Source: an uncultured bacterium (lineage in GTDB: Bacteria > CSSED10-310 > CAZUFC01). Taken from it: 64,000 nucleotides of DNA. Every line of letters starts with the position of its first letter. Position 1 is the stretch's first letter. Positions 16,785 to 55,500 of this stretch are shown here, one piece after another. Location of the stretch: the NCBI GenBank assembly GCA_964619725.1, contig CAZUFC010000017.1, positions 21,708 to 85,707 of the forward strand, written 5' to 3'. The translations under genes and the position numbers were made by a program. The notes below the pieces were generated by a model. It was not told where the DNA came from. It saw only the letters and a list, made by a program, of their open reading frames with translations, and made no database searches.

Positions 16785-18419
16785 ATGACGGAAAACAATG
16801 ACGGGAAATTTTACAAAAGCAAAATAAAATCTGCGGCTAAACTAGCAACCGCTTTTGCGCTCATTATCCTGACCGCGCTTTTCGCTTTCGGTTCTTCGCT
16901 GAACAACGGGTTCGTCTATGATGACGAATACCTGATCCAACCGGGACGCTACATGCTCAGCAATATCGAACCGAATGTCTTCTTTTCAGATCAATATTTC
17001 GGCTGGTTCGGCGAAGCTTCCTACCGGCCCGTCGTCAGCCTGTCTTATATGATCGATTATCAATATTCCGGTCGTCTGCCTGTGGGATACCATCAGACGA
17101 ATTTTCTTTTGCATTGCGGGACAGCGCTGCTAATTTTTATTCTCTTAAGAGCTATAAAAATAAATATGCCGGGAGCTCTGGCTGGTACGCTGATCTTTGC
17201 AGGATTACCGGCGGCTTCAGAAGCCGTCAATGGAATAGCTTTTCGGGAGGACCTGCTGGCAGCCTTATTCAGTATAGCCGCTATTATATGCCTTGTCAGA
17301 AGCATCATGACGAAACATCTGCGATGGATCATACTTTTCACGCCGCTTATGATCCTGGCTCTGTTTTCCAAGGAATCGGCTTTCATGCTGCCGGTAATGG
17401 GAATAGCCGTAATGCTTCTGCTCAAAAACCCGAAAGACAGACCGGGCAAAAAATTTTACCTTATCTGGACGATCACCATGTCTGTCGTAACCGGTCTTTG
17501 TCTTCTGGGCTGGTTTCTGCTGATGAAGGATAATGCTTTCTTCCTGCCCAACAAAAACCCAGAACTAAATCAAAGAATCTTCGAAATACCCTGCCTGTTC
17601 TCTTTTTACTTTCAAAAACTGTTCGTGCCCTCCCGTATCGCAGTTGAACTGCCGATGCCCGAGAACCGAAAAGCCGCTTTGTATGTGTCCATCCTCTTCC
17701 TGACCGGCGCTCTCATTGCCGGATTCATGAATAAAAAAGCTGCCCTGTTTTCGCTTTGGTTCGTCATCTTCCTTATCCCTGTATTACAGATCATTCCTTT
17801 AAAAAATAAGATCGGTCTGCGCTTTGTTTATTTACCCGCAGCAGCCTACGCCGGATGGACTGCACTGATCTTTCAACGTCTATGGAACGACGGAAATAAA
17901 ATAAAACGATTAGCCGTCGTCGCCCTTATCGTTATCGTCACATTTCAATGCGGCATTTCAAGAGCCGTCACCGAAAGCTGGGAAAATAACCTGGCCCTGT
18001 GGTCTGTCGCAACGAAAATCAATGCTGACAACGCCCGAGCGGCCTACAATATGGGTAAATATTCGGTCGAAGCAGGATTCATCAAACTGGGAGAAAAATG
18101 GCTTACTAATGCTGTGGAAATCGATCCCGACTCACATTTTTTACTTTTTCAATTAGGCTATTTCTACGAAACCAAGCAGAAAAACAAGAAAAAAGCCGCT
18201 GAATTTTATAGAAAATCCCTTGAATTAAAACCGGATACTTTTCAGCCGAACTTCCAGTTGGGACGGCTACTCTTCCTCAATAATCAAGTGGAAAAAGCGG
18301 AAAAATACTTGAAGAAAGCCCATGCTTTGAAACCGAACTGGATTACCGTTAACGTATGGCTGGATTACGCCCTTGATGAAATTGAAAAAAAGAAGAAAGA
18401 ATCAAAAAATGAAAATTAG
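16785..18419 (+). CDS. TMTC-like GT-C glycosyltransferase with C-terminal TPRs
   Basis: [36 protein letters not shown], then TPR repeats. Confidence 0.85.
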
Positions 18420-19509
18420 TAAAAACCGCTACCTGTCCGGTGAAGAAATCCTTCCGCCGGCGATCTCTCCGCAAATCAGCGCCGCTGAACTCATCGACAA
18501 TCAATTTACTGCATACAACGCCCGACGTTTAAATGAAATTTGCCGACTTTTCACGAAAAAAATACTGAATAACAAAACTACAATAGGACTGTCGCTGTCA
18601 GGTGCGTTGACCCCTGCAGGATTGGGCATTTCCTGTATCATTCCTCTTATGCGGTACGGAATGATAGACTGGATCGTATCAACGGGAGCGAATCTCTATC
18701 ACGACGCGCATTTCGCTATCGGTAAATCTTTGCATAAAGGAAAAATTTCCTGGAATGACGTTGAACTGAGAAAAAACAACGTGGTCAGAATATTCGACGT
18801 TGTGTTCGATTATAATGTCTTGCTCGATACGGACGCCTTCTTTCGGCGAATAATTAAACAACCTGAATTTCAACGGGAAATGGGCTCCGCAGAATTCCAC
18901 CGCCTCTGCGGTCAATACCTGATAGAACGAGAAAAAGAACTTGGACTGAAAAAAGTCTCAATCCTGGCCGAAGCATGCCGGCTTGACATTCCCGTTTTTA
19001 CCTCCTCCCCAGGCGACAGTTCAATCGGAATGAATATAGCCGCTGCCGAACTGGAAAACAATAAACTGAAAATTAATTCGTCCGTTGATGTAAATCAAAC
19101 CGCTGCCATCGTCTATAATGCAAAAAACAACGATGAATTCTCGGCAGTCGTTATATTGGGCGGCGGCTCGCCTAAAAATTTCATGCTCCAAACAGAACCT
19201 CATATCCAGGAAGTCCTGGGACTAAAAGAAACAGGTCATGACTACTTCATCCAGATAACGGATGCCAGACCTGATACCGGCGGTCTTTCCGGCGCCACTC
19301 CATCAGAAGCCGTTTCCTGGGGAAAAATCGATGCCGATAAATTGTCCAACACCGTCGTCTGCTACTCCGATACTACCATTGCACTCCCTCTTTTCGTCGC
19401 TTACGTCCTCTCAAAACAAAATCCCAGAAAACCTTCACGGATTTATAAAAATCTGGATAGCTTTACCGAAAAAATGAAAAAGGCGCTGAATATCAAAAAA
19501 CGAGACTGA
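18409..19509 (+). CDS. speY: Deoxyhypusine-synthase-like homospermidine synthase
   Basis: [38 protein letters not shown] and [23 protein letters not shown] (catalytic Lys). Overlaps the end of the upstream gene. Confidence 0.88.
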
Positions 19510-19659
19510 GCAAACAGGGATTACACTTTTGGGAATCATTTCTTCTCTTTTCTGTGATGATCAGATATGTCCCGGGCTGAGGTGTCTTTGTAATTGTTTC
19601 TGAAAATCCGGGCGTTTTGACCATCGATCCCCCAAAAAAACGCTGTATATTTCTATGTT

Positions 19660-19740
19660 TCATACTTCCTGAGCGGCAGCATATCTCTGAAAAAGCCTGA
19701 ATGTGATCATCAACGCTTCCTTGCGCAACCCTAGCGCCAC
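19660..19740 (-). CDS. Candidate 26-aa small protein MALGLRKEALMITFRLFQRYAAAQEV
   Basis: GTG at 19740, 5 nt after the SD-like AAAGGGGGTGA; TGA at 19660-62. Below the ORF-track cutoff. Confidence 0.35.
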   Translation of the reverse strand: MALGLRKEALMITFRLFQRYAAAQEV

Positions 19741-19771
19741 GCACCTCACCCCCTTTTCACGGGCCCTCCCC

Positions 19772-19900
19772 CGCTCGCTTTCAGATTCGGATCATCCACC
19801 ACCTCGGGCAAACCTTGCCTCTGAAACAGGTCATGCTTCAGAAACATGCCCCCTGCCTTCCTTGCGAGCGAAAGTTCCAAGATTCTGGATCCGAATCTCA
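19772..19900 (-). ncRNA. Candidate structured (pseudoknotted) RNA or 5' leader
   Basis: 11-bp helix (19898-19888 with 19793-19783) crossed by a 7-bp helix (19870-19864 with 19778-19772), plus internal hairpins. Begins at the predicted sigma-54 +1; a G-U pair favours the minus strand. Confidence 0.5.
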
Positions 19901-19911
19901 TTCAGCTTGAA

Positions 19912-20165
19912 GCACCTTTCATGCCAAAAATAAGTTTTCTTTAAAAACAATAAGTTATATTTTTCTCTTGCCTTGCCGTATCTCCGAAAATTCAAAAAAT
20001 TTGAATTTTTTTCAAATTTTTTGAATTTCATTCCAGCCGCTAATTCAGTCAACCCAAAAAAACAATTCCATAATATCCTTTAAACACAATAAATTAAATT
20101 CTTCGATAATTCCATAGAAACGGCGGTTTTTACCGTAATCCAGAGTTCAAATTTTTTGAATTTCA
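19912..20165 (-). promoter_or_regulatory. Sigma-54 (-24/-12) promoter with IHF-like site and enhancer palindromes
   Basis: TGGCATGAAAGGTGC (GG-N10-GC, 19926-19912); AAACAATAAGTTA (one mismatch to the IHF consensus) at 19945-57; TTCAAA-N3-TTTGAA at 19991, 20011 and 20146. Confidence 0.65.
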
Positions 20166-20394
20166 CGTTTTTGTGTGACATGCGATCAAAGGATATCACT
20201 GTTTTCCTGTAGACATAACCCTTCCAGCATAATATTTTATCCATTGAATGGGTTTGCGGAGGTCCCCTGATAATATTTCTTACAGCTTCGCAACAAACTC
20301 ATTTTCGGTAAAAGCTTCCTCATGCATTGAGAAAAAGTAGAAGGACACAGAGAAACACTTCATCCGCTAAAGGGTTCTATTAAGGAGTTAAGCG

Positions 20395-23300
20395 ATGCAG
20401 CGAATAATTTTTCTGGCGATTTTCCTGGCGCTGATGGAATACTGTTTATTTTCAAGGGAATGTTCTGGAGTAGAATCGTACGATCAATCATCATATTTTA
20501 TAAGTGATGCCGAGCCTGTGCCGTTGGAGAAACCGATTTCAAATCCTCTGGAATATTCGACGTCGAGGATAGGCTTGGACATTGACGGTTTCAAACTTCC
20601 TCGAGGACATGAAGGGAGGTACAGGTTTTCATGCCGATTTCCGGTCATTGATTATGTTTCCGAGCGTCCATTGTATATGAAACAATGGACGGAGGAACAG
20701 GCGGATTTGCTGATGAGTTCTCACAGTGAGAAGGGCATAGAGGTTGTAGCGGACGCTTTGACTATTTTGTGCGGAGGTAAAAACGAGACTGACGTTGAAC
20801 CTGCCGAATTAAAAAAGGAGAAGGAATTATTTCGCGATAAGCTTCAGGCGTCGTCTTTTAAGAGCTGGTATCAGGACGCTCTGCTGGAGCTTTACGAGAG
20901 TTATTTGAAAGCGTGGAGATTGACGAAATACGGGCGCCGGGGATTGAGCGAAGAGGATTTGTCGTTTTTCAATAAGAATCCTGGTTATTATATCGCTCCG
21001 ACGGAAGAAAAGATGACGTCATTAACGGGGAATGTCGAGACGCATTTTCGATATATCGAATGCGCCAGGCGGGCGGATTATGCCTGCATATTCGGAGGAG
21101 CTGAAATCGTGTCGAAAGCGGTGATGGCTTATATAGAAAGGGTGGAATCACATTCATCGAGTGATTTTTGTCGTGGTGATGCGAGCAAAAGCTTCCGTTT
21201 AGAATATGAATCGCCGGCGGGACTCATAAAAGTATCGGGTAAAGGAAACGACGAACACAACGAAGATGCGGTTTTTCTGATCGATTTAGGAGGCGACGAC
21301 GTATACGTCAACAATGCCGGAGGCGTTTGCAATCTGAAACAGGCGGTCTGTTTATGTATTGATCATGCGGGAGACGACGACTATATTTCTTACAAAGGTC
21401 GTTATATGCAGGGATTCGGACATCTAGGAACAGGAATGCTGATTGATTTGTCTGGAGATGACCGTTATATGGCGGGACATTTTTCGCAGGCGGCTGGGAT
21501 AATGGGAGTCGGAGTTATCTGGGACAAAGAGGGTGATGATCAATACATCGGGCAGACTTTCGGACAAGGGGCCGGTATGTTCGGACTCGGGATGCTCCTT
21601 GATGATGCTGGAGAGGATTTTTATGATATTGCGAGTTTAGGCCAGGGAGCAGCGACTACATTAGGATTGGGTATTCTGTCTGATTTAACGGACGACGACA
21701 GATACCATCTTGCGGTCGGAAGAGACAAGGATTCTCTGGGGGGAATGCCCGGATACGGCCAGGGAGGCGCTTTATCCTTTCGTCACTATCCCTGGGAAGG
21801 CGAATTGACGCCTTACGGCGGAGCGGGAATGCTCATAGACGCCAGAGGGAACGATCGATACCGCACAAAAGGATGGTGCGATCAGGGAGGCAGCTACATC
21901 ATGTCCCTGGGAGCGTTGGTCGATTATGAGGGAAATGATCATTATTCGGCTCATACAGGCCAGGGAAGCGGAATACATATTACTAACGCTATCCTGGTCG
22001 ACCGGAAAGGACATGACGTGTATGAGGGGAAATTTCGATGCGGCGGTTCCGGAGGAGACCGTTCACCCGGATTTTTGATCGATTATCAGGGCAATGACGT
22101 TTACCGATCCAGGACTTCATCTTACGGCACAGGCTGCAAACCCTTCTGTTTTTCTCTGTTTGTCGACTATTCGGGCGACGACGTTTACATATGTCCTCGG
22201 CCGGAAGATGAGATCACTTTCAACAACTGGGAAAGCTTCGGCGGAGTATGGCCGGAATCGGAACCTCACATCTGGCCTTACGCCGTTTGTCTGGATTTAA
22301 GCGGCGACGATGATTATCAGGTCCGCAATCGTTCGAATAACTCCGAAACACACAGTTTCGGGCACGGAATTCATCTGGACACGGAATTTCCCTCCAGCGA
22401 CATCATAGGAACCCTTCCCTGTCCGCTGGAACCTTATCGCTCGTTTCCACTTCCTCTTAACGTTAAAAATTCCGAATATTACGAAGACATAAAAGCGCTT
22501 CAAAATCCCCATACTTTTATCCGTTTTCAGACCATAGGCCGCATAACGAACAGCGGTACCGATGTTTTGCCGTCTCTTGTCGACGCTGTAATTAATTCTG
22601 AACATGTTCAATTCAACAGAGACGTTCTCGAATGCATTCATATTTTCTGTTCATCCCGGATAATCAGCGAAAATGATGAAAAAACGATAGCGAAGCTGCT
22701 GAAAGCAGCGTCGCCGGAAATCAGGATCATCACAGCCGATAACTGCGGAATTTGGAAATGGACATCCTCTGAACATGCACTTATGGAATCTTTAAAAGAT
22801 GAAAACGCTGAAGTTCGCAGATTTGCGTTGAATTCGCTGATCAGCCTGGAATCCGATAAAGCATCATCCTTCGTCAGAGAAAGCCTGATAAAGGATTCGT
22901 CAGAAAACGTCAGACGAACGGCCGTTCGATATATTCAACTGATATCGGAAGAATTCGATCCTTTTCCTTACCTGGCGGATGCTCTGCTGGATGATCCGGC
23001 ATCGTCCGTAAGAGTCGCTGCGGCTGAGGCGCTGGGTTATCTGCAGGAGCAGCGCGCTGTTGAGCTGCTCAAGGATGCTGCGGAATCATACGATGTATAC
23101 CTAAAACGTGCGGCGGCAAAAAGTCTGGGGGAGCTGGGAGAGATCGAGGGCATTGAAATTCTGATCGATTCACTCTCCTTTCCGTCCATTGATGCGTTTT
23201 TCAATTACGACCGCAACATCCCAAACTATATATCGGCATATGCCGGACATGACCTCAACGAGGATGAAAGATATGACAGAGAAAAGTGGCGTCAATGGTT

Positions 23301-23742
23301 CCAAAAAAGTAAAGATCAAATTGATCTGAAGGAAAACGTAAAAGCCTACAGGGCATATCAGGATACGGCAAAGGCAGTGCGAGACATTACAATTAAACGG
23401 AAAATCGAAAAATATGAAGCATTTTTATCGAATTTTCCTGATTATAATCGCGCTCGAAAAGCCCTGGCGAAAATTCTGAATGAAGCCGCCTGGAAAATGG
23501 TCACGGCTCCCGAAAATTCGAAGGATCATGATCCGGAGACAGGCCTGAAATACGCTCTGCGCGCCGTTGAACTGGAACCTCACATCAATTACATCGATAC
23601 TCTTGCTGAAGCTTATCTCGCCGCCGGCAAAACGGCTGAAGCGGAAGAATTATGCCTGGAAATGCTGGAAAAGCATCCGGATGAAAAGATGTTTCAAGAC
23701 AGGTTGGATCGTTGCAGGAAAACCAGTGAAAATGATTTATAA
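20395..23742 (+). CDS. Large exported protein: about 12 DxxG[DN]DxY Gly-rich repeats, HEAT repeats and TPR
   Basis: Signal peptide; repeats IDLGGDDVY, IDHAGDDDY, IDLSGDDRY...LDLSGDDDY separated by QGxGxxGxG; HEAT-PBS motifs (VRVAAAEALG); C-terminal TPR. Confidence 0.85.
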   Translation: MQRIIFLAIFLALMEYCLFSRECSGVESYDQSSYFISDAEPVPLEKPISNPLEYSTSRIGLDIDGFKLPRGHEGRYRFSCRFPVIDYVSERPLYMKQWTEEQADLLMSSHSEKGIEVVADALTILCGGKNETDVEPAELKKEKELFRDKLQASSFKSWYQDALLELYESYLKAWRLTKYGRRGLSEEDLSFFNKNPGYYIAPTEEKMTSLTGNVETHFRYIECARRADYACIFGGAEIVSKAVMAYIERVESHSSSDFCRGDASKSFRLEYESPAGLIKVSGKGNDEHNEDAVFLIDLGGDDVYVNNAGGVCNLKQAVCLCIDHAGDDDYISYKGRYMQGFGHLGTGMLIDLSGDDRYMAGHFSQAAGIMGVGVIWDKEGDDQYIGQTFGQGAGMFGLGMLLDDAGEDFYDIASLGQGAATTLGLGILSDLTDDDRYHLAVGRDKDSLGGMPGYGQGGALSFRHYPWEGELTPYGGAGMLIDARGNDRYRTKGWCDQGGSYIMSLGALVDYEGNDHYSAHTGQGSGIHITNAILVDRKGHDVYEGKFRCGGSGGDRSPGFLIDYQGNDVYRSRTSSYGTGCKPFCFSLFVDYSGDDVYICPRPEDEITFNNWESFGGVWPESEPHIWPYAVCLDLSGDDDYQVRNRSNNSETHSFGHGIHLDTEFPSSDIIGTLPCPLEPYRSFPLPLNVKNSEYYEDIKALQNPHTFIRFQTIGRITNSGTDVLPSLVDAVINSEHVQFNRDVLECIHIFCSSRIISENDEKTIAKLLKAASPEIRIITADNCGIWKWTSSEHALMESLKDENAEVRRFALNSLISLESDKASSFVRESLIKDSSENVRRTAVRYIQLISEEFDPFPYLADALLDDPASSVRVAAAEALGYLQEQRAVELLKDAAESYDVYLKRAAAKSLGELGEIEGIEILIDSLSFPSIDAFFNYDRNIPNYISAYAGHDLNEDERYDREKWRQWFQKSKDQIDLKENVKAYRAYQDTAKAVRDITIKRKIEKYEAFLSNFPDYNRARKALAKILNEAAWKMVTAPENSKDHDPETGLKYALRAVELEPHINYIDTLAEAYLAAGKTAEAEELCLEMLEKHPDEKMFQDRLDRCRKTSENDL

Positions 23743-24533: not shown

Positions 24534-27143
24534 ATGAGGAAAGCATTAAGTGCAATATTGGGAATTCTATTATTGAGCGGAGCGGCGAGGGGAGCTGAGC
24601 AGCTTGTATTTGAGGACCCTGCGAGCGATGACGACGGTCCCGGTTATTACATTTACCCGACTGATCGTGTGTATACGCCGGGCTCGTTTGATCTCAGGAT
24701 GCTTGAGGTTGTTGATCGGGGCAACTTAGTGGAAGTAACGGTGACGGTGGGAGCGAAATTGGAGAATCCCTGGGAGATGGATACGGGTTTTTCCTTACAG
24801 ATGGCGACGGTTTATATCGATCTGGACGGTAAAACCGGTTCCGGTCACGAGTGGGCGCTTCCCGGTTTTAACGCCGGTTTTCGAGCAGACTCATTCTGGG
24901 AAAAAGCTCTTATTCTTTCACCCCAATCAGCTTCTCGTTTAAACACGGAAATAAAAACCAAAGCGCCTGAACTGGAAGAGGACATTCTCATACCCATCAA
25001 AATGAAAGTAAGGACCAGGAGTTTTACGGGAGTATTTCGCAAGGATGATTTAGGAGCTGATGTGTCTGAAGATTGGGGATTTCAGGTTTTGTTGACGAGC
25101 AACGAAGGTTTTCCTGATGCCGACGAGATAATGACGAGAAAAGTTAATGAGTATGAAGGTCCTCATCGTTTCGGAGGCGGCAGCGATTATGACGGAGACC
25201 CTCATTTCATGGATATGCTCTGGCCGCCGGCGCAGGGTGGTCCGGATGAAATAGATGGACAGCACGAATGTCTTTCGAGGTACGAAAGCAGTTCTGATCC
25301 TTCGGAGAATGTATATGTAAGGATACCTATGGTCAAGGCGGGCCGTGAAGAAGGGCCGGCGCCCTTTCAACCGGATGTAAGGACTTCGGTGTACGGAAAA
25401 GCTCCTGTGTCGAAAAGCCAGGTTGTAAAAGTGGGCGAAGACCTGAGATTTAAATGGGGCGGAAAATTTTTCACTAACTGGTTATGGGGTAATGACGTAT
25501 CCGAACATTCCGTCTACATGGATGCGTTCGGTGATCACGGACTGAACGGCATCAATTCAGAGCTGGAATTGACGATTCACGCCTATATTTCAGATTACGC
25601 CGAAGCGGGAGCAAGAATCAAAAACAGATTCAGATACAATTACTGGACGACATACTGGAACAACGACAATTTGGATGAAGCCGAGTATATGAAATTAAGG
25701 GGATACTGGCTGCGATTCCGCCTGCCGGAAGTGTTCGCTCCTTATCTGGAAAAAATACATATCGGTTCTTCTGACCTGGGAATGTTCAACGCCTGGACCG
25801 TGGGCAGAATCAGATATATCGACAGAGACAATGCCAAAGGCATCTTCTTCATGGGAAAATTCAGCGACAAGGTGACCTATGATCTCGGGCGCATCAGCCT
25901 TCCTGAATTGTGGGCAGGACCAGGATGGTCTACCCGCGGCAAGGGATATTATTCAGCCGACGGTTTCGCAGTGCAGGATTACGCGCTGGCGGCATCCGTA
26001 AACGTGGATGCATCGGATTATTTCAGGTTTCGCGTGTTAGGCGATTACACGAGCGATAAAGAAGGAGACCTGGATGATGATAATCCCAGGGACGGAGTGG
26101 ACCGGGAAACTCGATATCAGAACACCGTAGGCAGCTTTGAATTTGCAGCAGACCTGGCCGGTTTCGCTGAATTAAACGGCGTTTATAATTATTCAAAATC
26201 AAATTACGATGCGAAATTCGATTATCTTGCACAAAAAGGCGAAAACGTCATTCCGCAGAAAGATGTTTCAGATTCAGCTTACAAACTGGGGCTGGAGTCC
26301 GACGATCCTTTCGGCATAGGCCTGGGCATCGAATTGGAATACTTCAACATCGGAGCGGACTTCATTTCACTGATGGCTGCCCGTCGCGAAACCGACGTAC
26401 TCCTCACAGAAGGTTTTGAGGCTGATGACGTCCTGGAATTAAATCCCGAGGACGATTTTCCTGAGGCCTATGAATACGGAGGCTGGTGGGGCGCCATGGG
26501 TCAAGCGCCCACGTTGAACATCGACAACAATGATACCCAGTTTGATGAAACTTATTATCAGTCCATAATCGGCTGGAAAGGTTTTACCGCTCTACTGAAA
26601 TACGGATTCGGAAGTTTGGATTTTTCAGGCGAATATACCATCATTGATTACAACACCAATATGCAGGGCAGGGATATGAGCGTTTATCCCCTTTACGCAG
26701 GCGTTTATAAAGAAGACCAGGACAGAAATTCCTCCATCGCAGCGCTTAACGCTTCATATACATTTGAGATGGGAAGAACGTTCGATATTTCTGCCAGAGC
26801 CAAACACATACTGGATGAAGACGATCAGAACAAAGACATATCTGCGGATGATTACGAATACGACAAATGGATATATGAAGCAGCTTTGGGCTGTCGCATC
26901 ATTGATGAGATTTATCTCAATATCGGAACCACAATGTACGACCGTACGATTACTCTGGGCGACGAAGAACATCCCGCCGATAAAACCCGCATATTTTTCA
27001 AAGGTTCTTACGACCTGGGAGGCGTGAAAATAGGCGGCGCACTGGAACAGTACAAAGGCGAATCCTGGTCTGCCGATTTCACCGAAAAATATGACGATTA
27101 CAAGCTGAACAGAGCAAGAATCTTCTTTGAAGCCGCTTTTTAG
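24534..27143 (+). CDS. Glucodextranase C-terminal (DOMON-like) domain fused to a predicted outer-membrane beta-barrel
   Basis: FEDPASDDDGPGYYIYPTD..Y.PGSFDL, NPW..GFSLQ...VYID and RFGGG motifs. The C-terminal ~570 aa are aromatic/Asp-rich alternating strands ending FFEAAF. Confidence 0.8.
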   Translation: MRKALSAILGILLLSGAARGAEQLVFEDPASDDDGPGYYIYPTDRVYTPGSFDLRMLEVVDRGNLVEVTVTVGAKLENPWEMDTGFSLQMATVYIDLDGKTGSGHEWALPGFNAGFRADSFWEKALILSPQSASRLNTEIKTKAPELEEDILIPIKMKVRTRSFTGVFRKDDLGADVSEDWGFQVLLTSNEGFPDADEIMTRKVNEYEGPHRFGGGSDYDGDPHFMDMLWPPAQGGPDEIDGQHECLSRYESSSDPSENVYVRIPMVKAGREEGPAPFQPDVRTSVYGKAPVSKSQVVKVGEDLRFKWGGKFFTNWLWGNDVSEHSVYMDAFGDHGLNGINSELELTIHAYISDYAEAGARIKNRFRYNYWTTYWNNDNLDEAEYMKLRGYWLRFRLPEVFAPYLEKIHIGSSDLGMFNAWTVGRIRYIDRDNAKGIFFMGKFSDKVTYDLGRISLPELWAGPGWSTRGKGYYSADGFAVQDYALAASVNVDASDYFRFRVLGDYTSDKEGDLDDDNPRDGVDRETRYQNTVGSFEFAADLAGFAELNGVYNYSKSNYDAKFDYLAQKGENVIPQKDVSDSAYKLGLESDDPFGIGLGIELEYFNIGADFISLMAARRETDVLLTEGFEADDVLELNPEDDFPEAYEYGGWWGAMGQAPTLNIDNNDTQFDETYYQSIIGWKGFTALLKYGFGSLDFSGEYTIIDYNTNMQGRDMSVYPLYAGVYKEDQDRNSSIAALNASYTFEMGRTFDISARAKHILDEDDQNKDISADDYEYDKWIYEAALGCRIIDEIYLNIGTTMYDRTITLGDEEHPADKTRIFFKGSYDLGGVKIGGALEQYKGESWSADFTEKYDDYKLNRARIFFEAAF

Positions 27144-45459: not shown

Positions 45460-46857
45460 TTGTACTCGGCTCATATACTTGTCGTTGATGATGAAGCGGT
45501 CGTGCGAAAAGGCGTCAAAAAAATACTGGAGCGCAAAGGACATCATGTGGAAACAGCCGAAAACGGTAATGCTGCCCTGGACAGCCTTGAACAGAACGGC
45601 TTCGATCTTATCATCACTGACCTGAAAATGCCCGACATGGACGGAATTCAGCTTCTGAAAATAATCAAAGAAAAACATGCCGACATCAGCATTATGATGA
45701 TAACAGGATATTCTACGGTACAGTCAGCAGTAGAATCCATGAAACTCGGCGCCGTCGATTACATTGAAAAACCCTTTACGCCGGAAGACCTGACGGACAG
45801 AGTCAATTCCGCTCTCAGAAAACGGATAACTTCCGGTGATTATTTCAGGACTAAAAGCATTGCTAAAAGAAAAAAATTCCCCTATATCATCGGCGAAAGC
45901 AAAAAATTGAAAGAAGTCTTCGATCTTATCGAAAAGACTGCCGTTACTTCCGCTACCGTGCTTATTACAGGAGAAAGCGGCACAGGGAAAGAGCTCGTTG
46001 CGAAAGCCATTCACAGTTGCAGCAAAAGAGCCGATAAGAAATTTATTGCTGTCGATTGTGGTGTATTTACCCCCGAATTGCTTGCTGACGAACTTTTCGG
46101 GCATATTAAAGGCTCTTTTACCGGCGCCGTATCCACTAAAAAAGGCGTCTTTGAAATCGCAGACGGCGGTACCATCTTCTTCGACGAAATCGCCAATATG
46201 GACTTGAATACTCAAACGAAACTGTTGAGGGTCCTTCAGGAAAGAGAATTCGTTCCGGTTGGGGGAACCGAACCCAAAAAAGTCAACGTCAGGCTGATCA
46301 CAGCTACAAATAAAAACCTGAAAAAACTCGTCGCCGAAGATAAATTCCGGGAAGACCTCTTCTACAGAATCTACGTCGTTCCCATTAATGTCCCGCCCCT
46401 GCGTGAAAGAAAAGAAGACATCCCCCTGCTTGCTTACCACTTCGTAAGAAAATTCTCCGTCGAAGGAGAAGAACCCATCACCATTTCCGAGGGCGCTCTT
46501 AATAAAATGATGAATTATGAGTGGCCCGGAAACGTCAGACAACTGGAAAACATGATCCAGAGAGCCATCATATTAGCCGAAAAAAACATTATCAAACCCG
46601 AACATCTGCCTATCGTTACTCAAACCGGCGAAGCTCCGGAACCCATCGATTCCATTCCCCGAACCAGCGAAGAACTTAAAGAAGTCAAGAAAAAATATCG
46701 ACACAAAGCTGTGGAAAAAATTGAAAAAAATTTCGTGACTAAAGCCCTCAATGATAACGACTGGAACATCACTAAAGCTGCAGGCGCGGTCGGCATGCAA
46801 CGACCTAACTTCCACGCCCTTATGAGAAAATACGATATAAAGAAAAAAAACGATTGA
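45460..46857 (+). CDS. Sigma-54-dependent response regulator (NtrC family)
   Basis: Receiver (VDDE, TDLKMP, KP); GESGTGKE, GSFTGA, FFDEI, FREDLFYR and WPGNVRQL; Fis-type HTH. TTG start. Confidence 0.95.
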   Translation: MYSAHILVVDDEAVVRKGVKKILERKGHHVETAENGNAALDSLEQNGFDLIITDLKMPDMDGIQLLKIIKEKHADISIMMITGYSTVQSAVESMKLGAVDYIEKPFTPEDLTDRVNSALRKRITSGDYFRTKSIAKRKKFPYIIGESKKLKEVFDLIEKTAVTSATVLITGESGTGKELVAKAIHSCSKRADKKFIAVDCGVFTPELLADELFGHIKGSFTGAVSTKKGVFEIADGGTIFFDEIANMDLNTQTKLLRVLQEREFVPVGGTEPKKVNVRLITATNKNLKKLVAEDKFREDLFYRIYVVPINVPPLRERKEDIPLLAYHFVRKFSVEGEEPITISEGALNKMMNYEWPGNVRQLENMIQRAIILAEKNIIKPEHLPIVTQTGEAPEPIDSIPRTSEELKEVKKKYRHKAVEKIEKNFVTKALNDNDWNITKAAGAVGMQRPNFHALMRKYDIKKKND

Positions 46858-46993: not shown

Positions 46994-47133
46994 ATCAAAC
47001 CGGGGTTTTACTTCTTTCAAAACATTTGACAGTTAATTTCAGTAATCGGGGTCGGCATCGGTATCGAAATCGAAACAGAATGATGTGAGGTTCTGTCGAA
47101 TTGTAACCTCAAAAGAGGCTTTTTTGATCAATG
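46994..47133. repeat. Dispersed intergenic repeat, copy 2
   Basis: Collinear similarity to 32870-33025, with a shorter internal RTCGRN hexamer run. Confidence 0.8.
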
Positions 47134-52545: not shown

Positions 52546-55500
52546 CTAACGACGAAAGCCTGCCGGCGCCGACGGCGGTTTTTCGACCAGTTCTCCCGTT
52601 TCCGAATCGAATACGGGCTGCTCATCTGACGATTCGATAGCAGCATAGGATTCTATTAATTCCGATTGACGTGCTACATGCTCACACATGCGTTTGTGTT
52701 CCTTCATTTCATCGGCAGTGACCAGGGTATTGCTGGGAGCCAAAAAATACCTGCCGTAACCGATAGCGTTCTGCACCGTAATTAAAACGGCAGCGACTGC
52801 GGGGTGCAATCCTGCTCCTCCCATTATCTTTGAGAGAATATTAACTCCTCTGGCGCCGTAATATCCGGCCTGGGCGCCTTTTTGAGCCCATTCGGCGATA
52901 TCCCAGCCCGTCCAGGGATTCCCGCCGCCCGTTAAATTCAATGTCTGGTACTTCCCTTGAATCATGGGCCACATATCGATCATCCTTTCCAGTTGTTCGA
53001 TGGCTCTTTGAAATTCATAAGCCCGGGCCAGATAGTCGTTCGGCTGGTTAAGCATATCCGTCGGGCTTAAACCATCCGGATCTGTAAATTTGAGCGGATT
53101 CTGATTAGCGTAATGGTAAGGGTTGACGCCGTAAGGGTCTCCTTCCCTCGGCGACAGCGGATCACGCGATATGAACCGGGCGGTCAATGCATCGTAATAC
53201 CTGTTGCGCATCTGATAAAAATTATCGCACGCGCTTTCCCGTCGAACGCCCCATTCGCCTGCGAAAGTGAACGGTTGATCGCTGGTTCCTGTATGAGCGA
53301 GCAATTTTCCATAGGGTGAATAGGCGTATGCATCCGTTACGTCGCCCGATTGATCGGTTAGACAAAGCGTATTGCCCACCTGGTCGAAATGATAAAAATA
53401 AGCGGAAAAACCGTCCTGCGCATCAATCATGTAGATCAGTCTGCCCTCCGGCGTATAAACGTAATAACGAAGCCATCCCGAAGCATCCTTTTCCGCTGCG
53501 GCAGGTTCCCTCTCTATCCCGTAGTTATAGTAGTATTCCTTTGTTTCAATGCCTTCCGTCCTTTCATTCAGGTTATCCAGGCCGTTGTAGTTAAGCGAAA
53601 CAGCATTCAAGGCAGTCAGACGATCTCCGGCATCCCAGCCGTAGGAGTCAGCCCCGGCATCTTCCGTTAAACGCCCCTGGCCGTCATAAATGTAACCTGC
53701 AGCGCTGACCTGCGATGCATCATCATAGGTAAAATCTTCCGTCGTTCCCGCCAGGTTATCGGCAGGATCGAGCGGCAGAGTCTGTTCCAGGCGCGTTATC
53801 TGTCCTGCGGCATCGTATTGGAATTGCAGATCAGCTATGGTACCATGCTCTATTCCGGTCAACCGGTCGGCAGCGTCAAAAGTAAAATAGGTGTGAACGT
53901 TGTTGGCCCGGGCAATGGTCGTCAATCTCCAGGCTTCGTCATAATCGAAATATACCTGTATGCCGGTCAAACTGTCGTAGGTGCGAGTAAGTAAACCGCT
54001 GGAATTGTCATAGAAATAATCCACCTCGAAATATCCATCGACATATGAGACGGTTTCCAGCCTTCCGCCTGCACTGAACTCGGCATCAAAACCAACGCCG
54101 TCATGATTGACCGTTCGGGTAAAATTACCCTCTTCATCATATTGAAACTGGATTCCGTCGCCGTCCGTCAACAGGTTAAGATCAGCATCATAAGCATAAT
54201 CAAGCGTTAATCCCGTATCATAACTGCGCTGAACCGTATTGCCCGCTTCGTCGAAAAGCGTCGTCATTTCATAACCGTCCGGATATGTCACCGTCGACAT
54301 GCGTCCCCGGCCGTCATAAGTATAACTCCATTCATTGCTCAAAGGATCGATATATCTGGTGGTCCTGTTGAAAGGACTCCTTTCGAATTCCCAGTCTTTT
54401 CCATTGGCATCAGTAATTCGAGCTACATCTCCGCAATTGTTTCGCTCGTAATAAATGCTTCCGATATCGGGCACATCGAAACTGTTCAAGCTGTCCCACC
54501 CATTATAATGATAAAACGTTGTCCGTGATAAAGGGTCCATGCTTGAAGTTTGACGCTGCATGACGTCGCGCTCGTATTCCATTTCATCGGCATGGGGATC
54601 GATTATCTTCGTTACTCTTCCCATCGCATTCGTTTCGTATTGCGTTTCATGCCCCAGGGGGGTCGTTTCCGATATCACAGCGCCCTCGGCATCATATTCC
54701 GTCGTCCGCTCTTCGCCGTCTATCATTTTGCTGGTGAGTCTTCCCGCAGGATCATAACCGTAATGAATCGCAACGTTATCAGGTCCGGTTTCCCTGGTTA
54801 GCCTGTCCTGAGCGTCATATTCGAATGTAGTCGTCCCACCTCTCCTGTTCGTGTAAGTCTGAAGCCTGTCCATCAGATCGTAAGCGCGTATGAACGTATT
54901 GCTTTTGGGGTCAGAAGTTAAAGTTAGATTGCCGTTGGCACCATAATAATATTGCCAGGTATTTCCTCTTTCATCCGTCGCCTTGGTCCGCCTGTCCAGA
55001 TCGTCATAGAGCGCCTGAACATCGGTCATGTCAGGATATACCGTCATAGTTCTGCGTCCGGGAATATCATAGTAATAACTCACCGTCCCGGTTTCCGGCT
55101 CGGTTTCAGAGCCTAGCGTGCCGTCTGCATTATAAACATATTGAGTTACTCCGCCGCTCGGATTCGTCCTCGTCTCACGTTGACCGATAATCGTATAAGT
55201 AAATTGAGTCGTTTCACCCGCTCGATCCGTATAGGTCAGAATATTGCCGTTTTCATCATGCGTAAAAATTTCCGCGGTGCCGTCAGGATATGAAATGGAT
55301 GTAAGGTTATAATAAACATCAGCATCCCGGCTATTCTCAGCCGCTTTTTTCGACCTGGTTTCATAGACGTATTCTACCGTATCCTGCTCCGCGTTGGTCC
55401 TGGACGCTATCTTCCCGGTCAACGCGTCGTAAGTGAATTCAGTGATGCCGCCGTTGCGGTCCGTCAGTCTGGTCAACTGTCCTGAACCGTTGTATTCGTA

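Follow-up and report, generated by a model that had tools for sequence, protein, structure and literature searches.

A predicted nine-member family of structured RNAs within a single-activator sigma-54 regulon of one assembled bacterial genome

What is transcribed from a sigma-54 promoter that faces no gene? This question is raised by an intergenic region on the minus strand of a 64,000-nucleotide stretch of contig CAZUFC010000017.1 (positions 21,708 to 85,707; referred to as the window), which is part of the genome of an uncultured bacterium of the lineage CSSED10-310. A first-pass annotation of the window had read here an enhancer-activated promoter aimed at nothing but the 3′ end of a convergent speY, followed by a pseudoknotted RNA and a 26-codon open reading frame (ORF), and had suggested an undescribed small RNA (sRNA), a structured leader controlling a small protein, or a dual-function RNA. 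The answer given here is a prediction from one assembled genome: the locus would belong to a nine-member RNA family within a sharply defined regulon of a single activator. That these are stand-alone, trans-acting structured RNAs driven by sigma-54 and this activator is given a probability of about 0.7.

The promoter region comprises the following elements, with distances relative to a start near 19900:

19911–19926, minus strand: sigma-54 −24/−12 promoter TGGCATGAAAGGTGCT, with GG and GC 10 nucleotides apart
19945–19957, strand not assigned: integration host factor (IHF)–like site AAACAATAAGTTA (plus-strand letters), at about −50
19991–20025, strand not assigned: two tandem 15-bp palindromes TTCAAA-N3-TTTGAA with centres 20 bp apart, at about −98 and −118; presumed activator sites
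20146–20160, strand not assigned: distal enhancer palindrome TTCAAATTTTTTGAA, at about −253

Compared with the sigma-54 consensus TGGCACG-N4-TTGCW, the promoter agrees at 10 of 12 positions, and it is the sole match to the pattern TGGCAYN5KTGCW in the window (0.15 expected; at least one match in 13 of 100 shuffles). Read directly from the letters, the palindromes at 19991–20005, 20011–20025, and 20146–20160 are perfect. The window contains five such palindromes with at most one mismatch, compared with 0.76 expected, and none of 100 shuffles reaches five. The IHF consensus is WATCAANNNNTTR, and a motif resembling it recurs at a similar distance in six of the nine sRNA promoters described below by scan and in a seventh by eye. 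At sigma-54 promoters, activator sites usually lie some 80 to 150 bp or more upstream, and transcription begins ~12 nucleotides past the GC. The promoter match, the upstream palindromes, and the IHF-like site—all lying where the first-pass annotation had put them and, in the case of the palindromes, at the right distances for a start near 19900—thus support a sigma-54 promoter that depends on an enhancer and has activator sites upstream. In the parts of the texts available to a full-text literature search, nothing describes a TTCAAA-N3-TTTGAA enhancer or the nine-copy RNA.

The element had been called an orphan promoter, a description that is not sustained on comparison with its own genome (9.17 Mb in 344 contigs, 47% GC), where the palindrome pair occurs on many contigs, several of which also resemble the downstream RNA. 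Contigs of this source genome (G000) are labeled C and other genomes G, each followed by a number. A genome scan found 20 loci at which two palindromes lie exactly 20 bp apart, with a third copy 30 to 200 bp off in all 20. When up to three mismatches are permitted, the pair occurs at 22 sites, compared with none for a control with the reversed pattern; single palindromes with one mismatch number 332. Across the 13 other genomes of the phylum, the pair occurs once, with three mismatches. At nine of the 22 sites, including that of the window, the enhancer is followed by a sigma-54 promoter of the form GG-N10-GC and then by a paralogous G-rich RNA of ~165 to 190 nucleotides. The promoter is of homologous sequence and at the same distance before the RNA in all nine copies, and the distance from palindrome pair to promoter is 47 to 76 bp, except for 246 bp in one copy (C18:48172–48452). 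The extra DNA between enhancer and promoter of that copy has a long inverted repeat and is insertion-like.

A covariance model, R1, was built from the alignment of the nine copies. Searched over the genome, it returns exactly these nine matches, with 112 to 165 bits, and no others; the match in the window is the following:

19739–19905, minus strand: conserved RNA body, R1 match of 112.9 bits; start placed near 19900 and end near 19738–19710

The copies are ~67 to 83% identical to each other. Counted from the start of the model, similarity extends from ~−30 to +157/+197, and it includes the enhancer, with the spacer in between being mostly unalignable. As judged from the paralogs, selection is hereby shown to act on RNA structure as well as on promoter and enhancer.

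Going from the 5′ to the 3′ end, the RNA of the window copy is organized as follows:

19880–19898, minus strand: P1, a 5′ hairpin AGAUUC/GAAUCU with loop GGAUCCA; this helix 1 is paired in 93.8% of alignment cells over the nine copies
19864–19874, minus strand: P2 5′ strand CUUUCGCUCGC, pyrimidine-containing, forming 11 bp with 19778–19768 at −19.2 kcal/mol
19806–19851, minus strand: P3, a long hairpin with an invariant GGGC/GCCC base and the distal helix UGUUUCUGAAGCA/UGUUUCAGAGGCA
19783–19793, minus strand: "mid" element GAUCCGAAUCU, which pairs with 19898–19888 in the window copy and is the P4 equivalent in the eight others
19768–19778, minus strand: P2 3′ strand GCGAGCGGGGG, which runs into and overlaps the invariant motif
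19761–19772, minus strand: invariant motif GGGGGAGGGCCC, identical in nine of nine copies
19749–19757, minus strand: A-rich linker and second G tract AAAAGGGGG, AAAGGGG-like in all copies

The predicted folding energy of the 165-nucleotide RNA is −59.5 kcal/mol (z = −2.03), a stability also reached by 6 of 200 shuffles. In the alignment underlying R1, standard pairs account for 81.3% of cells, compared with 28 to 46% when partners are slid by one to three columns, and the covariation score is 0.255 as opposed to 0.057 to 0.130 for slid partners, and nine pairs differ in both partners. In 500 shuffles, the observed values of paired fraction, double-change cells, and score are never attained; the number of pairs with a double change is matched by 81 and that of further pair types by 21 of the 500; since the aligned copies are paralogs that fall into about four subtypes, these figures overstate independence and the shuffle test is inflated. 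The clearest compensation is found in P2, where CGCUCGC/GCGAGCG of the window copy stands against ACGUCCG/CGGACGU in most other copies; the cognate strands of the window copy pair with −19.2 kcal/mol, compared with −6.9 to −14.5 kcal/mol when combined with strands of other copies. P2 forms 10 to 12 bp in eight of the nine copies and is reduced to an outer CUCC/GGAG in the copy at C1:197392–197557. In P3, the pairs next to the base and the distal helix covary; helix 4 is 98.1% paired with two covarying pairs, and four pairs never vary in the model alignment of the nine copies. P1, P2, and P3 are in this way shown, by comparison of the paralogs, to be maintained by compensatory change.

Further features common to the family are a purine-rich joining stretch, found in all nine copies, and a tail with three or four G tracts, which, judged by eye, are at most candidates for a G-quadruplex. 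At the invariant motif, RNAalifold predicts a hairpin C-GGG[GGAGGG]CCC-G. The composition across copies is 34 to 38% G and 14 to 21% U.

All helices named in the first-pass annotation are present in the letters of the window copy, and their fate in the paralogs differs. The hairpins CAUGUUU/AAGCAUG and GGCAA/UUGCC are not kept and are replaced there by the pairing UCUGAAG/UUUCAGA, which had been listed as an alternative and turns out to be the conserved distal part of P3. With respect to the pseudoknot, the 7-bp pairing CGCUCGC/GCGAGCG is part of the conserved 11-bp P2 and is compensated between paralogs, and the crossing of two helices is possible in the window copy. The other partner of the crossing, the 11-bp helix AGAUUCGGAUC/GAUCCGAAUCU, is peculiar to the window copy: it has −19.0 kcal/mol there, compared with −5.0 to −18.2 kcal/mol for cognate pairing in the eight remaining copies, and across the family cognate combinations of the P1 region and the mid element (mean −11.9 kcal/mol) do not separate from non-cognate ones (−11.3 kcal/mol). 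Since this helix is strong in the window copy only and has no cognate advantage, the pseudoknot is not a feature of the family.

P2 instead competes with a local hairpin, P4. In eight of the nine copies, the stretch before the P2 3′ strand is complementary to that strand and forms GUCCGA/UCGGAC, GCGCCC/GGGCGU, GCCCGA/UCGGGC, CCCGGG/CCCGGG, or GGCU/AGCC with −6.7 to −18.0 kcal/mol. For both helices, cognate duplexes are more stable than non-cognate ones by a modest gap (P2, −15.2 vs −12.6; P4, −10.4 vs −8.2 kcal/mol). P2 and P4 are mutually exclusive and yet both track the changes of their shared strand, which bears the signature of a conformational switch. Two members, the window copy and the copy at C1:197392–197557, look locked in one pairing.

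Enhancer sites outside the RNA family define the rest of the regulon, whose products were surveyed for the sites other than that on C70. A −24/−12 match lies downstream at 18 of the 21 enhancer sites scanned, the exceptions being those on C126, C144, and C296. Six sites with the same three palindromes precede genes of 226 to 232 codons with a Y1_Tnp domain (PF01797). Herein the promoter is CGGCA(T/C)-N6-TTTGCT, located 241 to 254 bp away from the palindrome pair, and a strong ribosome-binding site precedes the gene. The loci of these Y1 (HUH) transposases are as follows:

C5:24581–25655, C12:95166–96120, C22:70175–70941, C22:72554–73320, C27:20261–21250, and C35:6577–7358: genes resembling REP-associated tyrosine transposases (RAYTs), PF01797

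A hairpin like those known as repetitive extragenic palindromes (REPs), GCGAAGGG-GTCAGAG-CCCTTCGC with the core GGGGTCAGAGCCC, has 116 exact cores genome-wide, clustered beside these genes. Because the Y1_Tnp genes sit among such REP-like hairpins, they look like RAYTs, and control of REP-associated transposases by sigma-54 and an activator seems unusual. Another locus (C43:25621–26705) has the enhancer and the promoter TGGCACAGAGCTTGCT before the gene of a secreted ComEA-like HHH_3 protein, which is followed by an SSB gene. A second enhancer site on the same contig (C43:49740) has an ERCC4/HhH nuclease gene ~2.5 kb downstream of it, and this gene content points to a theme of DNA uptake or single-stranded DNA. 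Further sites precede the genes of an EF-hand protein, a 1043-residue beta-helix/PMP-repeat protein, and an aminopeptidase-C–like peptidase. Two sites lack a recognizable product: at C10:51077–51500, the promoter-like AGGCGCCATTCTTGCT is present along with a ribosome-binding site but no RAYT ORF, so that this site may be a RAYT relic, and C144:156–600, which within 900 bp lacks both a promoter match and any ORF of at least 70 codons, could hide another small gene or RNA. Taken together, and as far as the genome sequence tells, the nine RNAs are the putative output arm of a regulon of ~22 promoters that includes six RAYT-like genes and a ComEA-like/SSB operon.

The genome has a single rpoN gene (one PF04552 match in a genome search) and 37 enhancer-binding proteins (PF00158 AAA+ matches). 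One of these, of the NtrC family, would bind the tandem pair together with the distal TTCAAA-N3-TTTGAA copy, the IHF-like site may bend the DNA in between, and, as in known sigma-54 systems, a signal would lead to opening of the closed complex. With one activator common to all sites, that signal would induce all nine RNAs along with the other members of the regulon. The RNA would then act in trans, with the never-varying nucleotides—the GGGC/GCCC base of P3 and the GGGGGAGGGCCC tail—as its probable working parts, and exposure of the tail would be gated by the exclusive pairings of one 3′ strand in either P2 or P4.

Several observations weigh against this picture. The evidence base consists of paralogs within one metagenome-assembled genome with 90.9% completeness and 6.5% contamination, and to it applies the overstated independence of the covariation figures given above. 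A search of sequencing runs found the sequence in three DNA runs of one microbial-mat study and in no RNA run, so that not only the +1 and the 3′ end but the transcript itself is a prediction; the contigs of those three runs show no variants at the locus. No intrinsic terminator was found after the window RNA, and there are only weak candidates at the other copies. The window copy itself is the most divergent of the nine, and P4 is absent from it (−2.6 kcal/mol). No gene of an enhancer-binding protein lies within 4 kb of a convincing enhancer site, only within that distance of single palindromes with one mismatch. Regarding targets, all nine genome occurrences of the complement of the invariant 12-nucleotide motif are the RNA copies themselves, and duplex energies with seven mRNA leaders of the regulon are, by a crude method, no better than those of shuffles (z = −1.1 to +2.0). 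Lastly, a search of 60 further genomes with R1, among them all 13 from the phylum, yielded no convincing homolog. It gave two weak matches there, both attributed to chance: one of 24.9 bits (G046:C5:69245–69322) is part of a tmRNA pseudoknot region, which the tmRNA of the source genome (contig 221, 7820–8178) does not resemble by eye, and one of 21.2 bits in G002 is GC-rich, apparently coding sequence. Pattern scans for the core motif gave at least 116 matching stretches in genome contigs, with a best R1 score of 18.3 bits among them, and 16 in metagenome contigs, none with R1 at E ≤ 0.1. Viral contigs yielded one stretch each for the RNA core and the enhancer pair, with no R1 match; the enhancer-pair stretch comes from an AT-rich phage contig and is a tandem repeat.

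Other explanations of the locus have to be weighed against a family of stand-alone, trans-acting RNAs. The unit could be a non-functional repeat, i.e. a mobile or duplicated promoter cassette, possibly spread by RAYTs and REPs, with a functionless transcript. Its multiple copies, the same enhancer before six RAYT-like transposase genes, the 116 REP-like hairpins, and its lineage-restricted, orphan nature would all fit. Conservation limited to enhancer, promoter, and RNA body, with the spacer diverged past recognition in most pairs and the helices kept by compensation, counts against this, as does the lack of terminal repeats or REP hairpins at the borders of the unit, the genomic REP-like hairpin being a different sequence; a mere repeat is hence quite improbable. 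A cis-acting element would be either a leader or riboswitch or, by read-through, an antisense or transcriptionally interfering RNA for the convergent gene that ends at 19509. The missing terminator would allow transcription to reach this gene 233 nucleotides downstream, and the exclusive P2/P4 pairings look like an expression platform. Convergent genes are found behind five of the nine copies (at 153 to 740 nucleotides), which could favor interference; for the same reason, the copies appear to be stand-alone RNA genes and not leaders. The remaining four copies have a co-directional ORF at 122 to 983 nucleotides, the flanking genes belong to mutually unrelated families, conservation ends ~160 to 195 nucleotides past the start and thus short of the neighbors, and neither a U tract nor a start site follows P4. 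Action in cis is therefore rather improbable, and with it the leader suggested at first. Hardly credible at all is a small-protein gene or dual-function RNA. Two frames are available in the window copy: the proposed 26-codon GTG ORF does exist (19660–19740, minus strand), with the Shine-Dalgarno (SD)–like G tract AAAGGGGG before it, and a 51-codon ATG frame spans the RNA body (19901–19746). The former lies outside the conserved block, starting where similarity to the paralogs stops (~19738), and is judged not to be a gene: its 26-residue peptide has no counterpart in any of the eight other copies, one of which (C135) lacks any ORF of at least 10 codons there, and the SD-like tract is a conserved part of the RNA tail that also occurs in copies with no ORF behind it. 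Across the core, none of the frames both has a start codon and stays open in every copy; one that is open in seven, with differing starts, is closed in the C9 and window copies. Close paralogs differ by single-base indels, and long open frames are expected at such G-rich, U-poor composition. What stands of the three initial suggestions is an undescribed structured non-coding RNA, in agreement with Rfam, which gives no match at E ≤ 1 in 18000–22000 or at E ≤ 5 on all nine loci.

As for the mode of action, the conserved structured core is tentatively held to bind a factor, either protein or ligand, with P2/P4 as the gate, although this assignment falls somewhat short of even odds. It is favored over antisense pairing because of the invariant helix strands and tail hairpin, an architecture more elaborate than in seed-type sRNAs, and the absence of the complement of the invariant motif elsewhere. 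The antisense alternative concerns the mode only: the RNAs would act like Qrr as nine redundant or additive copies, with the G-rich tail or the P2 5′ strand as seed and the assistance of a chaperone. It follows the logic of the multi-copy, sigma-54/LuxO-driven Qrr genes, as far as the available parts of the sources set it out, and would account for an invariant segment common to all paralogs; formation of P4 would release both candidate seeds. A divergent tandem Sm/Hfq-like protein with a YRHAI motif by eye is moreover encoded (24.4 bits, with a Pfam Hfq cut-off of 27); it is located at C35:~26315–26770 on the minus strand and has two repeats, of which the second ends in ...FYRHAIYDF. The target results given above speak against such pairing, as the 12-nucleotide complement is confined to the RNA genes and the duplexes with the seven leaders are not above chance. 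Furthermore, CCCTCCCC is under-represented in the genome (110 vs 194 expected), ribosome-binding sites, being purine-rich, offer no complement to a G-rich seed, and invariance extends to both strands of a helix, with the four never-varying P3 pairs, which is a better fit to recognition of structure than to a linear seed. Antisense action of this kind is possible but on balance unlikely. More specific, and with correspondingly long odds, is the idea that the RNAs are decoys with a conformational switch: the GGGC/GCCC helix base and the GGG[GGAGGG]CCC tail hairpin would bind a protein or small molecule, P2/P4 would set their exposure, and the RNAs would titrate a player of a lineage-specific single-stranded-DNA program under a single activator, comprising the RAYTs, the 116 REP hairpins, and the ComEA-like/SSB genes. 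An example of such a player would be a RAYT, whose REP substrate is likewise a GGG-loop-CCC hairpin. Titration of CsrA/RsmA by GGA motifs, including GGAGGG on the GGG/CCC tail hairpin, is a very improbable variant. The genome has a single csrA gene, RNAalifold does place such a hairpin at the invariant motif, and the first-pass annotation had pointed out AAGGAA motifs resembling CsrA sites. Those motifs are located downstream of the conserved block; GGA is not enriched, with 3 to 7 per copy compared with shuffle means of 4.5 to 6.5; the only universal GGA is that in the tail; and there is no match to the CsrB/Rsm families of Rfam. The csrA gene (C7:~53364–54400, minus strand) follows fliW and flgL-like genes, according to translations read by eye, in a flagellar partner-switch arrangement that would suggest CsrA of the protein-antagonized type. 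For such fliW-linked CsrA, no sponge RNAs are described in the part of the source available (PMC4894983).

Activator-dependent sigma-54 sRNAs are known mainly from Proteobacteria, with Qrr, GlmY/Z, CrcZ, NrsZ, and Pxr as examples, and the same regulatory arrangement is now met in a sparsely sampled, uncultured lineage from a microbial mat, for which 13 genomes of other species of the phylum were compared. It most closely resembles that of Qrr1–5 of Vibrio (RF00378, LuxO/sigma-54). These are likewise several intergenic, paralogous sRNA genes, each with its own sigma-54 promoter and with upstream palindromes for one NtrC-type activator, each a short inverted repeat whose halves flank a 3-bp A/T core (TTGCA-N3-TGCAA in the case of LuxO), and they also share an invariant stretch across copies, Qrr having a conserved core of ~32 nucleotides. 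However, Qrr RNAs have ~100 nucleotides and four simple stem-loops, whereas the RNA described here is G-rich, with ~165 to 190 nucleotides and a long-range helix that encloses a long hairpin; it has no RF00378 match and no U-rich terminator, occurs in nine copies, and its genome has no canonical Hfq above the Pfam cut-off. From these similarities and differences, we infer that regulation is arranged as for Qrr and that the RNA fold is unrelated.

Invariant structured elements would also suit an RNA of the type of CrcZ/CrcY (CbrB/sigma-54) or CsrB/RsmY/RsmZ, which are protein-binding and driven by an enhancer or a two-component system. Unlike these, the nine-copy RNA matches no Rfam family and lacks a short, repeated binding motif—GGA being at chance level and an A-rich CA series not being seen—and the csrA gene is fliW-linked. 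GlmY/GlmZ, NrsZ (PMC4253122), Pxr (PMC5684412), and FlmE-type RNAs are stand-alone sRNAs with sigma-54 promoters and have NtrC-family activators and often an IHF site in common with the present system. However, they belong to other lineages, have one or two copies, and are unrelated in sequence and fold as judged by the lack of an Rfam match. Orphan RNAs of the riboswitch type resemble the family in having multiple helices with invariant junction nucleotides, covarying stems, and two exclusive pairings; in contrast to them, five of the nine copies have no downstream gene to control, the RNA has a predicted inducible promoter of its own, and no ligand is indicated. The regulatory arrangement also resembles that of the RpoN-dependent sRNAs of Campylobacter jejuni (PMC11187230).

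What sets the system apart is a fold that is unrelated to those of known sigma-54 sRNAs and in which two competing helices both covary. Sequence alone here defines a complete enhancer motif and a regulon of ~22 promoters, which unexpectedly includes domesticated-looking RAYT transposases. With motif and regulon defined, the activator and the role of the RNA become testable in a heterologous host. Nine is, to our knowledge, the highest paralog number of a sigma-54–driven sRNA family.

The immediate neighborhood in the window is made up of two genes:

18373–19509, plus strand: gene of the deoxyhypusine-synthase family (PF01916), convergent on the sigma-54 promoter and in line with the first reading as speY
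20395–23742, plus strand: HEAT-repeat protein gene, divergent from the sigma-54 promoter

Elsewhere in the window, a sigma-54 activator AAA+ domain (PF00158) is encoded at 45886–46386 on the plus strand within an open frame of 484 codons, ~26 kb from the RNA locus. A palindrome with one mismatch is located at 47016–47030. Another structured RNA motif of the genome is Acido-Lenti-1 of Rfam, with four matches at or above the gathering score (37.5–38 bits) among 19 at E ≤ 0.01, namely C185:7063–7117 (minus strand), C42:11495–11549, C189:12256–12310, and C292:3521–3575. None is found beside eight of the nine sRNA copies; one Acido-Lenti-1 motif lies ~260 nucleotides downstream of the remaining copy, on the same strand.

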